Assembly: GCA_024692805.1 (NCBI GenBank) | Contig: JAILMD010000063.1 | Coordinates: 1-39,035 of the forward strand | Origin: a bacterium | GTDB lineage: Bacteria; Bacillota; Clostridia; Christensenellales; UBA1242 | DNA length: 39,035 nt | Direction of reading: 5' to 3' | In this document: piece by piece, positions 25,150 through 30,436 of the stretch | Layout: each line of letters begins with the position of its first letter | Numbering within the stretch: the first letter of the stretch is position 1 | The notes under the pieces: generated by a model | What the model was told of the DNA's origin: nothing | Databases searched by the model: none | Seen by the model: only the letters and a program-made list of their open reading frames with translations | Translations under genes and position numbers: made by a program

Positions 25150-25297
25150 CTTCACCTCGTTATTTTAGTTTAAGTTTTTTTAACTTTTTAGTCAACGTTT
25201 TTACTAGATTTTTACTAATAAAGCCTTCTTTTTCGCCCAATTTTATAAGAATTTAAGAAAAAAACGAGTTTTAACAGATATTTTTTAAAAAACAGTA

Positions 25298-25326
25298 TTG
25301 ACAAACCGCAAAACCCGTGTTAAAAT
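25298..25326 (+). promoter_or_regulatory. near-consensus sigma-A promoter with no downstream ORF
   Basis: TTGACA (25298-25303), 17 bp, TAAAAT (25321-25326) with extended TGn. Confidence 0.8.
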
Positions 25327-25332
25327 AAGCAC

Positions 25333-25478
25333 GTAATTAAGTTTGAGTTACTTATTACTGAAAAAAGGAAATAATTCCTAAAAAAGCTATTAAGAACATT
25401 TCCCACTCTTAATATGCTAAAAACTCATTTTGTTTTATCCAGCAAAAGACCTTGGTTTATCCAAGGTCTTTTGCTTTA
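25333..25478 (+). ncRNA. putative small regulatory RNA (about 145 nt)
   Basis: Lies between an orphan promoter and a strong terminator; internal stems TGAGTT/AACTCA, AGGAA/TTCCT, TATTAAGA/TCTTAATA; no ORF with RBS. Confidence 0.6.
25441..25475. terminator. bidirectional terminator shared by putative sRNA and SipW operon
   Basis: Perfect 15-bp inverted repeat AGCAAAAGACCTTGG / CCAAGGTCTTTTGCT. Confidence 0.88.
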
Positions 25479-26060
25479 TGTTAAATCTTGCTGAACAACA
25501 ACATTTGCGTTGAAAACATAATCGTTTCCAGCATATTGGTTTTCACTCATATATGATGCTATTGGCCAAATCCAAGTAAACGTTATGGTAACAACTTGGC
25601 TAGCCGTGTTATTTGGCGTATATGCTATGTCTCCGCTAAAGTTAGCGCTTGAAAAGTCAACAGGTTCGTCTTGTCCGCTAAAATTAGTTTTAAACTGAAT
25701 TGGCGGATAGTCAACTAATGGCGTTTGCTTGCTAAAAGTAACGCTCCAATTAGCATTAGTTTCACAATAACGGCAGTCAATCGTTAGGTCAAAAGTTCCC
25801 ATAGAACCTGGACAAACTTTCGTTTCATCGCAAAGGTCATAAACAGTAACAGTTTCCGCAAGCGATAAGTTAAATGTGTCAGTTGTTGAGAAGTCTTCAT
25901 CATTAACAACAACCCACCACCCTGCTGCCCTATGGGTTGAATCAAAACTGAGCAAACTAGAAAAACGAGCAGCCGAGGTTGCAATCGCGCAACCAACAAC
26001 TGCCACAAACATGGCAATAATAACCAAAATTCTAACTGTTGACCCTTTAATTTTCTTCAC
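25476..26060 (-). CDS. SipW-cognate secreted protein, TasA/CalY-like (putative minor subunit)
   Basis: Signal peptide ending TSA-ARFSS; VCPGSMGTFDLTID and TFTWIWP motifs; GTG start with AGGA RBS. Confidence 0.65.
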   Translation of the reverse strand: MKKIKGSTVRILVIIAMFVAVVGCAIATSAARFSSLLSFDSTHRAAGWWVVVNDEDFSTTDTFNLSLAETVTVYDLCDETKVCPGSMGTFDLTIDCRYCETNANWSVTFSKQTPLVDYPPIQFKTNFSGQDEPVDFSSANFSGDIAYTPNNTASQVVTITFTWIWPIASYMSENQYAGNDYVFNANVVVQQDLT

Positions 26061-26070
26061 TGTTTTATCC

Positions 26071-26928
26071 TTACTTGCTAGCCTTTGTTTGTTTTGTTTT
26101 CTTCCCCTTGCTTTGTTTTTTAGGCTCTTTAACCTGTTTTTCTTGTTTAGGCTTAACCTCTTTTTTAGGCTCTTTAACCTCTATATCTTTTTCAGGTATT
26201 TCAACCTTTTCTTTATTTTCTTCAAGCGCCTTAATTTGCGCCTTTAATCTTTCTTTTTTGATTTTAATAATTATAAATTTAATAATTGATGGAAGATAAA
26301 GAATAAATATTCCAAGCCCTAAGAAAACGAACATTCCAACCGGTGACTTGAAGAATTCAATAATGTTTCCTCCGTTCCTAGCCATAAAGACAACTCGCCC
26401 ATAAATTTCATCATCTTTAATCCAGTTGTCATAGTCTGTTCCTGCTTGGTCAGGAGAGTTTCCAACATAATCTCCCTTCGTTCTATAACATCTTTCTCTT
26501 ATAAGCGATTTCTCATAAACTTCAATAATTCTGTGAGTAACCGTTTTTCCATCTTTAGTTTCAAAAGTTATAACGTCGCCTTTACTATATTCCCCCTGCG
26601 CGTGAATAACTATTAAGTCACCAGCATTAATTGTTGGGCTCATACTTCCCGTTTCAATCTTAAGATTAGCATATCCTAAAAACGTAGGAACTTTATCACC
26701 ACGGCTTTGTTTAATTAAAAAAACAATATCCGCAATAATACAGAATATTAAGATTGCGCTAAAAATCCCAAGCAAAACTTTAGCAACAATATTTAAAACT
26801 AATTTTGCTATTTCTTTCTTGGTTTTTTTAGGCTTAACTTCGCTAACCTCCTCCTCTTTTTTAGGTTCTTCTGGTTGAGGGTTTTTAGCCTTTTCTAGCT
26901 CTAATTTTTTGCGCTGTGACTTGCTCAT
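26071..26928 (-). CDS. sipW: SipW-type (Ser/His, S26B) signal peptidase, copy 2
   Basis: TGSMSP, GDLIV, GDVITF, VTHRI, TKGD; AAGGAG RBS before ATG 26928. Confidence 0.85.
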   Translation of the reverse strand: MSKSQRKKLELEKAKNPQPEEPKKEEEVSEVKPKKTKKEIAKLVLNIVAKVLLGIFSAILIFCIIADIVFLIKQSRGDKVPTFLGYANLKIETGSMSPTINAGDLIVIHAQGEYSKGDVITFETKDGKTVTHRIIEVYEKSLIRERCYRTKGDYVGNSPDQAGTDYDNWIKDDEIYGRVVFMARNGGNIIEFFKSPVGMFVFLGLGIFILYLPSIIKFIIIKIKKERLKAQIKALEENKEKVEIPEKDIEVKEPKKEVKPKQEKQVKEPKKQSKGKKTKQTKASK

Positions 26929-26935
26929 AATCTCC

Positions 26936-27805
26936 TTAAACAAATGATGCGTTAACTGAAATGTTTATTTTATATTCTGATTGATATTGCCCATTAAGCG
27001 TATCAAGTTCATCATCAACATTAGGGTCCCAAAACCAAAACAGCCTATAAACTTGCGATTGCCCTGCTTCAAGGCGCTTGGTTGGAATAGTTATTGTTCC
27101 AATATCTTTATAACCTTCCCCACCAATAACATAAGTTTCACCCATCAACCTATATCTTAGTGAAAACTCATTTTCGTTATGTTCAGTTAAAGTTATTGAA
27201 TATTCAATTGGGTGCGCATTAGCGTTGTTAATAACAAACCTATATTCTCCGCTGTCCCCCGGCGCTATGTAAGCGTCTGTGTTATATTGGTTGCTATAAA
27301 AGATTTTAAGGTTTCCGTTTTGCGTCCACTCTTGCTGGTTGCTTTGGTTAGCAACTTTTAAAACAGGAGCAGTGTTAAGATAATCATCATCAGGTTTAAT
27401 TATTCCCGCAACAATTGTTCCGGTAACAGCAGTTGCTGAAATTAATGCAATTAATAAAGGAAACAAAACTGAAACAATCTTGTTAGCCTTAACTCGCCCA
27501 ATATAAACGCTTGGCAAAACGTCAAATGACGTAGCACTTCGCCTTTTCGCATAAATGTTTTTGCTTTCATCAATCGTTCCGATAACGTCGCCTCGGCTTA
27601 TGATATCGTTTTTGTTATAACCCGAAGCAGTGTCTTTAGTAACAACCGTTCCCCAAAGTCTGCCGTTTAAGTCAAAGATTTTGTTTCCCGAAGTTGTTCC
27701 AACAATCTGATTTTGCGAATCATAAATTCGCTTGCGTAATCCAAGCTTAGGTTTGCCAACAATTGGCATGTTCGTTAAACTGTTTTTAAATCTTGATTCG
27801 TCCAT
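26936..27805 (-). CDS. membrane-anchored protein with C-terminal TasA/CalY-like domain
   Basis: N-terminal repeat domain, central TM, then IAPGDSGEYRFVINN and LEAGQSQVYRLFWFW. Confidence 0.65.
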   Translation of the reverse strand: MDESRFKNSLTNMPIVGKPKLGLRKRIYDSQNQIVGTTSGNKIFDLNGRLWGTVVTKDTASGYNKNDIISRGDVIGTIDESKNIYAKRRSATSFDVLPSVYIGRVKANKIVSVLFPLLIALISATAVTGTIVAGIIKPDDDYLNTAPVLKVANQSNQQEWTQNGNLKIFYSNQYNTDAYIAPGDSGEYRFVINNANAHPIEYSITLTEHNENEFSLRYRLMGETYVIGGEGYKDIGTITIPTKRLEAGQSQVYRLFWFWDPNVDDELDTLNGQYQSEYKINISVNASFV

Positions 27806-27842
27806 TTCCCTTTGTTTAATCCCGATTTTTCTTATGAAATTA

Positions 27843-27958
27843 TGTTAAGTTTAAAGAACTTTTTAAACCTAGCAAAATTTAATAAGAAGTTTTTTGGCGG
27901 TCTTTTTATCCAAGATCAAAGACCAACCAAAAACCACTTAATTTAGGCTGATGCCTAA
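27843..27958 (-). promoter_or_regulatory. three tandem stem-loops 3' of putative major subunit
   Basis: Inverted repeats at 27843-27874, 27891-27933, 27943-27958. Confidence 0.55.
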
Positions 27959-27982
27959 TAATTCTAAAACTTAATTTTCCAA

Positions 27983-28705
27983 TTAAGAAGCAATATATTG
28001 TTCTGCAACTAATGGAATGCTTACAGTAATTTCACTAACTGCAGCGTTTTGGTCAGCAGTTGCTAACTCAGCAATTTTGTTACCAAGGAAGGTGTCAAAT
28101 AAATTGCCTTTGCTAGTCCAAGTTACAGTAACTGGAACAGTAACTTCAAGTGTAGTTTCAGCGTCAGCTGGCATTGCTGAAATTGTTGTGTGGCCACCTG
28201 AAGTAGAAGTTGTTAATGTCATTCCTTCAGTGCTGGCAGCAGTAACTACTGCAGCTGCAAAATCTTCAGCAACGGTGTTGCTACCAAGTGTAACAGTAAA
28301 GATATCAGCTAATGTTGTTGAAGTCGTAATATTAGTATCATCTTTACCAATTCCATTTGTTGAATCTTTATATTCAGCAAGTAATGCAGTCCATGCGGCA
28401 GAAGCAAACACACCAGTACCAGTAACTGTTGCACCTGCTTGTGCAACACTAATCTCAGTTACAACTTGTGAGAAGTATTCAATTGTTGCATCTTTGTGTT
28501 GAGAAACACCAGGAGCAACAAGACCAACACTAGCGCCAACGCTAGCAGTTCCACCTGTAACTAAGAAACCGGCAGCTTGAACTTTAGCGCCGCCTTCAAC
28601 GTTGCTAGTGAACTTAGCGTAAGTTGAACCAATAACGCAAGTTGAAATGATAGTTAATGACAAAACTGCAAAAGCAATTGTCAATAACCAATTTTTCTTT
28701 TTCAT
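27983..28705 (-). CDS. SipW-cognate secreted protein, TasA/CalY-like (putative major fibre subunit)
   Basis: MKKKNW-hydrophobic-GSTYA/KFTS SipW-class signal; LVAPG motif; Ala/Thr/Val-rich; AAGGAG RBS before ATG 28705. Confidence 0.75.
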   Translation of the reverse strand: MKKKNWLLTIAFAVLSLTIISTCVIGSTYAKFTSNVEGGAKVQAAGFLVTGGTASVGASVGLVAPGVSQHKDATIEYFSQVVTEISVAQAGATVTGTGVFASAAWTALLAEYKDSTNGIGKDDTNITTSTTLADIFTVTLGSNTVAEDFAAAVVTAASTEGMTLTTSTSGGHTTISAMPADAETTLEVTVPVTVTWTSKGNLFDTFLGNKIAELATADQNAAVSEITVSIPLVAEQYIAS

Positions 28706-28740
28706 TTTGTTTTTCTCCTTTAAAAATTTTTCTTTTTGAA

Positions 28741-28880
28741 GATTTATACAGGTAGCTACTTTACCGTTCTGCATAAATCATCAAATTCGGCGGATATATG
28801 GTTTTGTAGCAATCCGCCAAATTGTTTTTGAGCACCAATAATTTGATTGCTCTTTATCTTAACAGTTTCTTGGCAAACTG
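28741..28880 (-). promoter_or_regulatory. four tandem stem-loops 5' of putative major subunit
   Basis: Inverted repeats at 28741-28779, 28784-28823, 28830-28852, 28863-28880. Confidence 0.55.
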
Positions 28881-28892
28881 ATAAAACCGAAG

Positions 28893-29822
28893 TTATTTGT
28901 TTTCTTTGTTTTCCTCCATCTCTTTGAGTTTTTTACGTAATTCCTCAAGCTCTTCATTAGCGCTTGCGCTAGTTTGCTTTTCAGCCTTGAGCTCGGCATT
29001 TCGTTTAACTAATTCATAAATGATTAAGGCAAGAGCAGGAAGACCAATGCAAACGATTAATCCCCAAACGCTTTGCATCCAATAAATAATTCCACCAAAT
29101 CCAGCAAGCCTTAAAACAAACTTACCAACAACTTGGTCGCCCGTTATTGGCTCGTCAGGATAAGTTACGTTTTCGCCTTGAACATTTTGTTTAGGCGTTC
29201 CGTCGCTGTTTCTAACAATATTGTTAATTCCGGTTGTTGTTATGTGAACAACGCCTTCCTCGTCAATAGTAACCTTAGCAACCTTATGGGTTATAACGGC
29301 GCCAAGCGTTCCATCAGCGTTTTTCTCACGATATGAAATAACGTCGCCAACAACAATAGTTTTAACGTCAACCTCTTTTGAAATAACAAGGTCGTTAGTT
29401 TTAATTTGAGGATACATTGAGTCACTGAGAACAATTAGTGGTTTAAAACCAAAAAAACTTGGGACATCATTAGGATGAGCGATTGCCCCAATAATCAAAA
29501 TAACGTTAATTAACAAAACAGGAACCATTAAAACCAACAAAACGATTGAAACAGTTAAAGAGGCAATTTCGCCCCCCGTTTTCTTTCTTTTAGTTTTAAC
29601 TTGAGGCTCGCGAACCTTTGCTTCACTTACTTCAGGCTTAACTTCAGCCTTTTCTTTGGTTTTTTCTTCAGCCTTAACTTCAGCCTCTTTCTTTTCAACC
29701 TTTTCGGCTTTTTTAGTTCTTTGTTTTTTTACTTCAGCTTTTTCTTCAGCTTTAACTTCTGCTTTTTCTTCAGCCCTTTCTTCGGCTTCAAACATAGCAA
29801 CTGAATCGTTAGATACGTCCAT
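28893..29822 (-). CDS. sipW: SipW-type (Ser/His, S26B) signal peptidase, copy 1
   Basis: VLSDSMYP, NDLVI, GDVISY, ITHKV; AGGAGG RBS before ATG 29822; long E/K-rich N-terminus. Confidence 0.85.
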   Translation of the reverse strand: MDVSNDSVAMFEAEERAEEKAEVKAEEKAEVKKQRTKKAEKVEKKEAEVKAEEKTKEKAEVKPEVSEAKVREPQVKTKRKKTGGEIASLTVSIVLLVLMVPVLLINVILIIGAIAHPNDVPSFFGFKPLIVLSDSMYPQIKTNDLVISKEVDVKTIVVGDVISYREKNADGTLGAVITHKVAKVTIDEEGVVHITTTGINNIVRNSDGTPKQNVQGENVTYPDEPITGDQVVGKFVLRLAGFGGIIYWMQSVWGLIVCIGLPALALIIYELVKRNAELKAEKQTSASANEELEELRKKLKEMEENKENK

Positions 29823-29897
29823 AAAAGACCTCCTGAGGTTAGTTTTGGAATCTTGCCAACTTTTATTCATTTGGCACCACTCCACCATAACAAATTT

Positions 29898-30361: not shown

Positions 30362-30436
30362 GCTACTGTGGCTCAGTGGTAGAGCACCGCATTGGTAATG
30401 CGGCGGTCGCGAGTCCGATTCTCGCCAGTAGCTCCA
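30362..30436 (+). tRNA. tRNA-Thr(GGT)
   Basis: Acceptor GCTACTG/CAGTAGC, D arm GCTC/GAGC, anticodon arm CCGCA-TTGGTAA-TGCGG, T arm GCGAG/CTCGC, encoded CCA. Confidence 0.96.

Follow-up and report, generated by a model that had tools for sequence, protein, structure and literature searches.

Does a gene cluster for a putative secreted fibre carry, at its own 3′ end, a small RNA that pairs with the translation starts of the fibre genes? The question is raised by contig JAILMD010000063.1 of assembly GCA_024692805.1, from a bacterium of the Clostridia (Christensenellales; UBA1242). The window analysed here is the whole of this stretch, 39,035 nucleotides long. Its minus strand carries an operon of two SipW-type signal peptidase genes (sipW1 and sipW2) and three structural genes, called here the major subunit, the minor subunit and the 'anchor'. 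On the plus strand, a candidate small RNA gene at 25333-25480 converges on the last gene of the operon, that of the minor subunit. An earlier note on this DNA had read the RNA as antisense to the starts of all three structural genes through several seeds. Our analysis suggests a simpler arrangement, to which we assign a probability of about 0.45: the small RNA would block translation of the major subunit through one seed, and that of the minor subunit more weakly. The small RNA gene itself looks real and under selection, and we rate its existence as much more probable than this reading as a whole.

The source genome, G000, comprises 787,320 bases in 63 contigs with a G+C content of 33.6% and is 96.5% complete; the window is its contig C39. 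Genes were called with a simple home-made caller, and the start regions (−30 to +15) of the 771 called genes served as the background. Exact matches and plain duplex energies with the whole RNA were compared for 764 start regions, and an accessibility-corrected ranking was made for 746. The score of the latter was our own IntaRNA-like approximation, based on ViennaRNA suboptimal duplexes and the opening energies of both partners. Start regions of orthologues from the genus (G001 to G007) were scored against the G000 background, which gave an "equivalent rank" of 746. The structure alignment contained six full-length sequences, and promoter boxes and loops were counted in seven genus sequences, that of G007 being cut by a contig end.

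Between 24800 and 30400, no other promoter-like site scores as well as that at 25298-25326, which matches 11 of 12 positions plus TG. TATTGACA and TGnTAnAAT are kept in all seven genus sequences, and the 17-nt spacer and the upstream DNA are scrambled. Conservation resumes in the alignment at about 25333, the predicted +1, and ceases past the terminator. RNAalifold predicted five helices with 43 pairs, in which 98.4% of the cells pair across the six sequences; when the partners were slid by one to three columns, only 35.6-54.2% did. Four pairs have changed on both sides, three of them in the terminator and one in hairpin 3, where A-U is replaced by G-C in two of the six sequences. The longest invariant run spans the 29 columns at 25418-25446, compared with 36 variable columns among the other 120, and this linker is identical in two metagenome loci, L081 and L085. 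The linker is predicted to be mainly single-stranded, its unpaired probability being high over most of 25426-25441. G000 holds a single copy of the RNA. The conserved promoter, the terminator, the compensatory pairs and the invariant run bear out the plus-strand small RNA that had been proposed from the window alone.

A conserved block of this kind might instead act as DNA, as operators or the promoter of a divergent gene joined to the terminator of the operon, with no RNA gene at all. The RNA is known from sequence prediction, and in G000 the intergenic block must also hold the promoter of a minus-strand glycosyltransferase gene. However, the upstream neighbour changes between genomes (a glycosyltransferase gene in G000 and G002, DegV-like genes in G004, G005, G007 and at G001:C10), and the block does not change with it. 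Compensatory changes in two helices argue for selection on RNA structure, and conserved boxes around a free spacer, followed by a conserved body from +1, are the pattern of a transcribed gene. We consider a purely DNA-level role very improbable.

A small protein gene was also considered and rejected. The three overlapping open reading frames are 26-28 aa long, and relatives fail to preserve their starts or frames: three of seven sequences lack the ATG at 25414, and the loop of hairpin 2 carries indels of 1-2 nt. A relic of a duplicated fibre-gene 5′ end found no support either, as no repeat family of at least 14 nt joins 25418-25446 to the fibre-gene starts. The only repeat families touching the RNA are 71-87% matches of the A-rich segment 25361-25394, or of a hairpin-3 arm, to coding or low-complexity DNA. 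No Rfam (release 15) family reached its gathering threshold on the small RNA; in the window, only a tRNA gene did (30362-30433, plus strand, 69.9 bits); this gene stands between the operon and a DegV gene, some 0.5 kb upstream of the sipW1 start. The best Rfam match on 25250-25520 was rli61 (RF01485), at 26.5 bits compared with a gathering score of 50. The Listeria rli61 resembles the present RNA in having a hairpin, a U-rich linker and a terminator of similar size, but the match is below threshold and its alignment covers mainly the terminator, and the present RNA is not a member. The RNA appears to represent a previously undescribed family, conserved in one genus of uncultured gut and rumen Clostridia.

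We then compared the RNA with the gene starts of the operon. Because the operon lies on the minus strand, identity with the plus strand means complementarity to the mRNA. The four identities from which the antisense idea had arisen, at the starts of the major, minor, anchor and sipW1 genes, are all exact (Table 1) and coincide with independently called starts (major ATG 28705, minor GTG 26060, 'anchor' ATG 27805, sipW1 ATG 29822). For sipW2 (ATG at 26928), no match had been claimed, and none to the RNA was found. Among the 764 start regions, exact matches of at least 8 nt occurred at a chance level of 196, those of at least 9 nt at 84, those of at least 10 nt at 31 and those of 12 nt at 4. Thus, the 8-mer of the anchor and the 9-mer of sipW1 are ordinary, such lengths being common, and the 10-mer and 12-mer are unusual. 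Genome-wide, in the target sense, AAAACAAAATGA occurs 4 times, once at a called start; GGATAAAACA 5 times, twice at starts; GGGAAATG 20 times, once at a start; and AGGTCTTTT 16 times, once at a start. By exact-match length, the operon was second of 530 five-gene windows, and 23 of 20,000 random five-gene sets reached its score.

In the accessibility-corrected ranking, the major subunit was 2nd and the minor subunit 7th of 746, both through 25424-25441. The two matches overlap in one 16-nt stretch and therefore constitute one seed, not two. The predicted major duplex has a 12-bp core, UCAUUUUGUUUU:AAAACAAAAUGA, extended by UCC:GGA, with a hybrid energy of −16.3 kcal/mol. The minor duplex has a 10-bp core, UGUUUUAUCC:GGAUAAAACA, extended by UCAU:GUGA with one G-U pair, at −15.1 to −15.2 kcal/mol. 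The anchor ranked 51st of 746, through the loop of hairpin 3. Neither sipW1 nor sipW2 gave a favourable accessible interaction in this ranking; for sipW1, this is because its match lies in the terminator stem.

Shuffled sequences were used as decoys for the linker. As a free oligonucleotide, the 31-nt linker placed the major subunit 2nd and the minor subunit 8th, a rank product of 16. None of 150 shuffled linkers (75 mononucleotide and 75 dinucleotide shuffles) reached this value; a rank product of 100 was reached by 1 and one of 1000 by 7 of the 150. By our own arithmetic, two of five neighbouring genes would reach the top 7 of 746 by chance in about 1 of 1000 cases. The expectation that the targets would stand out from the gene starts of the genome and from shuffled controls, scored here by our own method, was borne out for the major and minor subunits and failed for the anchor and sipW1.

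The predicted targeting was followed across the genus. The 12-nt match to the major start is kept in all six in-operon orthologues (G000, G001, G002, G003, G006 and G007), whose equivalent ranks are 2 in G000, 1 in G002, 1 in G001, 5 in G006, 5 in G003 and 1 in G007. Major-like paralogues outside the operon (G004, G005 and G007) rank 63-99. The minor subunit ranks 8 in G000, 19 in G002, 255 in G001, 86 in G004, 7 in G005 and 9 in G006, which places four of six in the top 20. With the seed alone, the anchor ranks 135 in G000, 27 in G002, 19 in G001, 68 in both G004 and G005, and 95 in G006, and a weak, imperfect seed site lies at its start (27806-27823). The seed ranks of sipW1 (641, 674 and 289 in three genomes) are background-like, and those of sipW2 (180-580 of 746 in six genomes) serve as an internal negative control. 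The structural genes, the major subunit above all, thus appear to differ in this respect both from the operon's own peptidase genes and from chance matches.

The two remaining identities fared differently. G000 and G002 are the only sequences whose hairpin-3 loop reads CATTTCCC, with A at position 25398; the other five of the seven have T there and read CTTTTCCC. With this change, the complement of the AUG is lost, and the anchor start regions of these genomes show no compensation. Of the sipW1 match, only 7 nt survive in G002, a relative that is 95% identical, and the terminator stem is changed in other genomes. We treated both matches as chance. Of the claim that the RNA is antisense to all three structural starts, the major and minor parts therefore stand, the former in all six orthologues and the latter with high ranks in four of six, and the anchor part does not. 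The proposal of several seeds gives way to the single seed at 25424-25441, and the weaker sipW1 site is dropped.

Several points weigh against pairing with the operon. The transcript and its effect on a target are both predictions. The ranking is a home-made approximation and not the output of IntaRNA or CopraRNA, and its background is weakened by the 296 of 771 called genes without a Shine-Dalgarno call. Plain duplex energies of the whole RNA give ranks of 340 for the major subunit, 127 for the minor subunit, 88 each for the anchor and sipW1, and 649 for sipW2 (of 764), and put the operon 95th of 530 five-gene windows. The major duplex is A-U rich, with two G-C pairs in its 12-bp core. The median ranks of the decoys at the major and minor starts, 204.5 and 179 of 746, indicate that the fibre starts are somewhat sticky for U-rich oligonucleotides in general. 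The minor match is weak in G001 and G004. The seed is identical in the six aligned sequences, in L081 and L085, and in G007 over the first 12 nt of 25424-25441, up to the contig end; since it never varies, compensatory change between seed and target cannot be shown. The major gene is near-invariant in nucleotides from about −20 to +60, which includes the ribosome-binding site and the signal peptide (28646-28725 in the window; L019, L020, L048-L050). As this whole 5′ block is conserved, the pairing site is not singled out by conservation, and it may be kept for reasons of translation or of the signal peptide. The rest of the major protein is 39-59% identical between species, a pilin-like pattern in which a variable body follows a constant 5′ block.

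Many of these points would also fit an RNA that is real and has another partner, such as another mRNA or a protein, or a role away from these sites. The fibre matches would then be a coincidence between a U-rich, CAU-containing seed and the A-rich, canonical starts of highly expressed secreted proteins. As the counts above indicate, many start regions contain an exact match of 8-9 nt, and unrelated starts score as well or better: SSB is first, the top 8 also include an HtrA-like protease, an ABC transporter, glycerol kinase, S17 and IF-1, and further high ranks go to L13, YtfJ and oligopeptidase F, with no theme common to the top matches. The stickiness of the fibre starts, the conservation of the whole major 5′ block and the plain duplex energies point the same way. 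Coincidence does not readily account for two of five neighbouring genes in the top 7, which no decoy equalled, nor for the synteny and co-distribution with the operon described below. Moreover, of the major, SSB and HtrA orthologues, only those of the major subunit keep their complementarity across the genus: SSB drops to ranks 89-277 in four relatives, and HtrA, at rank 5 in the near-identical G002, drops to 141-321 in the other four. A sponge for CsrA would have no partner, as CsrA was not found in the genome. We regard a different partner as a serious possibility, although not a probable one.

Table 1 Features of the small RNA gene and of the convergent fibre operon (positions in the window).
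Feature	Position	Strand	Description
Promoter of small RNA	25298-25326	+	TTGACA, 17-nt spacer, TG-extended TAAAAT
Predicted small RNA	25333-25480	+	About 148 nt; ends inferred from promoter and terminator
5′ hairpin (helix 1)	25333-25358	+	RNAalifold consensus: 9 pairs, 92.6% of cells paired, no compensatory change
Hairpin 2 (AGGA/UCCU)	25366-25379	+	4 invariant pairs; loop varies by 1-2 nt indels
Hairpin 3	25385-25418	+	11 pairs, all cells paired; C-rich loop ACAUUUCCCAC at 25396-25406
Invariant linker with seed	25418-25446	+	Predicted pairing stretch 25424-25441 (CUCAUUUUGUUUUAUCCA)
Intrinsic terminator	25441-25475	+	15-pair stem, then T-rich tail; minor-subunit stop abuts at 25476
Match to major-subunit start	25425-25436 = 28702-28713		TCATTTTGTTTT, 12 nt, exact
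Match to minor-subunit start	25431-25440 = 26061-26070		TGTTTTATCC, 10 nt, exact
Match to 'anchor' start	25397-25404 = 27803-27810		Loop CATTTCCC, 8 nt, exact
Match to sipW1 start	25444-25452 = 29823-29831		AAAAGACCT, 9 nt, exact, inside terminator stem
Predicted pairing site, major mRNA	28702-28718	−	−14 to +4: Shine-Dalgarno, spacer, AUG
Predicted pairing site, minor mRNA	26057-26070	−	Shine-Dalgarno-like GGAU, spacer, GUG
Minor subunit gene	25476-26060	−	194 aa, GTG start; no family match
sipW2, second SipW-type signal peptidase I	26071-26928	−	TIGR02228, 65.1 bits against a cut-off of 51.85
'Anchor' gene	26936-27805	−	289 aa
Major fibre subunit gene	27983-28705	−	240 aa, N-terminal signal peptide
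sipW1, archaeal/SipW-type signal peptidase I	28893-29822	−	TIGR02228, 61.0 bits against a cut-off of 51.85

Wherever the assembly of a relative is continuous enough to tell, the small RNA gene and the fibre operon are linked. In a DNA search of 41 related genomes, the block was found at 82-95% identity in six of the seven other species of the genus, and nothing convincing was found outside the genus. The RNA is convergent and directly past the minor-subunit gene in G000, G002, G001, G004 and G005. It is convergent but farther downstream of the operon in G006 (3.3 kb, with other genes between), L085 (0.4 kb) and L081 (1.5 kb). In G007, the minor gene is truncated by the end of one contig and the RNA by the start of another, and in G003, only about 1 kb of sequence follows the minor gene before the contig stops; both are consistent with the same order. 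Two assemblies, those of G001 and G007 (G007:C69:1-101), break in or at the RNA, which may reflect strain variation or a repeat, and G001 has a partial second copy of the first 61 nt of the RNA at a contig end (G001:C10:2527-2587).

We also scanned 151 genomes sampled from the family, including G000 and three other members of the genus. A covariance model of the RNA (R1) scored 167-177 bits in these four genomes only; the other four matches (26-34 bits) were bare terminators with neither the seed nor fibre genes nearby. A profile of the major subunit found the same four genomes and no others. Protein-anchored scans of genome and of metagenome contigs gave six loci each, of which only L081 and L085 added copies of the RNA. 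The co-distribution of RNA and operon is confined to a single clade and so counts as one evolutionary event, which limits its weight in favour of pairing.

The close linkage invites a role mainly in cis, in which the convergent promoter and a bidirectional terminator insulate the operon or limit read-through, or the RNA terminator affects the stability of the 3′ end of the operon mRNA. The convergent RNA abuts the minor stop codon in five genomes, and its terminator hairpin is fully complementary to the 3′ hairpin of the operon. The stem is symmetric, and T-runs on both strands suggest that the terminator is shared with the convergent operon. However, the RNA is equally conserved where it lies 0.4-3.3 kb from the operon (G006, L081 and L085), and insulation would leave the 29-nt invariant single-stranded stretch and the covarying hairpin 3 unexplained. 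We judge a mainly cis role improbable.

From the computed gene, structure, conservation and complementarity ranking, we infer that the RNA is transcribed, pairs inside the cell and represses its targets, in the following way. The RNA would be independently transcribed, non-coding, specific to the genus and inherited together with the SipW-dependent fibre operon. Its single-stranded stretch 25424-25441 (5′-CUCAUUUUGUUUUAUCCA-3′) would pair with the region from the Shine-Dalgarno sequence to the start codon of the major mRNA, and less strongly with the equivalent region of the minor mRNA. Pairing would occlude the 30S binding site and lower translation of the structural subunits, and probably also the stability of their mRNA, leaving the two signal peptidase genes untouched. 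Occlusion of the ribosome-binding site is a textbook mechanism; thus, the gain would be a new family and a new setting and not a new principle.

The RNA would act without Hfq. No Hfq and no CsrA turned up in G000, an assembly that is 96.5% complete, so that their absence is unproven; a CsrA sponge and an Hfq-dependent RNA were both set aside as candidates because neither protein was found. It is also conceivable, but in our view unlikely, that graded pairing of the one seed with all three structural genes (major above minor above anchor) sets the ratio of the subunits and spares the peptidase genes. If true, the fibre locus would carry a self-contained, Hfq-independent stoichiometry controller in uncultured Clostridia with reduced genomes.

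To our knowledge, hardly any regulatory RNAs have been described in uncultured gut and rumen Clostridia with reduced genomes. The present RNA has unusually clean comparative support and a concrete candidate target in the neighbouring operon. The earlier note knew of no described equivalent, which is too strong. FasX of group A Streptococcus acts without Hfq. It is reported to pair with the ribosome-binding sites of pilus subunit genes and to lower mRNA stability and translation (PMC7900414). Both would be Gram-positive small RNAs acting at fibre-gene start sites, the pairing here being predicted from the sequence. The two differ in that FasX is encoded with the fasBCA two-component genes, away from the pilus locus, and has sortase-assembled pilins as targets, whereas the present RNA is linked to the operon that it presumably targets. 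The two are unrelated in sequence, and no Rfam family reached threshold for the present RNA. A second precedent is srn135 of Streptococcus pneumoniae pilus islet 1, a small RNA inside a pilus locus that modulates that locus; it is reported to be processed from the rrgA 5′ untranslated region, to be needed for RrgA synthesis and to stabilise rlrA mRNA, and is thus an activator (PMC8465756). In contrast to srn135, the present RNA gene is equipped with a promoter of its own; it sits on the strand opposite the operon, at the 3′ end of the latter, and its predicted effect is to block starts.

Among known SipW-dependent fibre operons are tapA-sipW-tasA of Bacillus subtilis and sipW-bsaA of Clostridium perfringens (PMC7395162, PMC11522486). 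The present operon resembles them in having a SipW-type peptidase gene beside genes for secreted, presumably polymer-forming proteins. It differs in that its structural proteins match no TasA/camelysin or other family. The regulation reported for them in these papers is by proteins or RNase Y (PMC7395162, PMC11522486). The Bacillus small RNA PhoS raises tapA-sipW-tasA expression, and its authors state that none of these genes is a direct target (PMC11522486). In the titles and abstract openings returned by a limited search, no direct pairing of a small RNA with a tasA-type start region appeared, and the family name together with 'small RNA' was not found in full-text literature. If confirmed, the RNA would regulate a SipW-dependent fibre system directly, a type of system described to date under protein or indirect small RNA control, and the locus would be one for a surface structure that carries its own post-transcriptional brake.

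The proteins of the operon were compared with known families and folds. Both peptidases fall below the cut-off of 190 for the Bacillus SipW equivalog NF046067 (76.4 and 48.8 bits). The three structural proteins matched no Pfam family (E up to 0.01), including the TasA/camelysin family, which we take to be Peptidase_M73, and no relevant NCBIfam family (E up to 0.1). The major subunit has 65 database homologues, none with a precomputed Pfam domain and with 'hypothetical protein' as the only name given to any. An AlphaFold (AF2) model of the major subunit from 51 sequences, with a mean pLDDT of 79.9, has an N-terminal helix followed by a beta-rich domain. With this model, Foldseek found nothing at E ≤ 0.001; TasA (5of2) appeared at E 0.37 with a TM score of 0.25-0.30. 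In a wide VIA-align search of 48,161 representative chains, the best Z was 4.6; several donor-strand (chaperone-usher) pilins and adhesins scored 3.3-4.6, which is within noise, and TasA was absent among the matches listed. The description of the structural proteins as TasA-like is therefore unconfirmed, with neither a family match nor a clear match to a solved fold. A SipW-dependent secreted fibre is a reasonable inference from the context.

Other features of the operon were observed. A stable hairpin lies past the stop of the major subunit, between the major and anchor genes (27890-27935, minus strand), and has the 10-mer TTTATCCAAG in common with the loop and 3′ arm of the terminator of the operon and RNA (at 27905 and 25456). 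This hairpin could be an internal attenuator or a processing site yielding excess major mRNA. In the intergenic region between sipW1 and the major gene (28706-28892), the blocks GGTTTnATCA and TTTGnTGnTTTATGnA...GCTAC survive in six genomes amid diverged DNA, and they may be an internal promoter or a leader element of the major gene. Both peptidase genes contain tandem repeats rich in Lys, Glu and Ala, with a 12-nt period and outside the catalytic core (29627-29801 and 26090-26244); such low-complexity repeats are unusual in signal peptidases.

Away from the operon, major-like domains occur inside frames of 940 aa (G005:C1:154868-155464, L055) and 914 aa (G006:C20:7116-7712, L053), possibly as adhesin fusions of the fibre subunit. 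A gene for a YtfJ-type sporulation protein is present in the 0.79-Mb genome at G000:C15:2073-2462.

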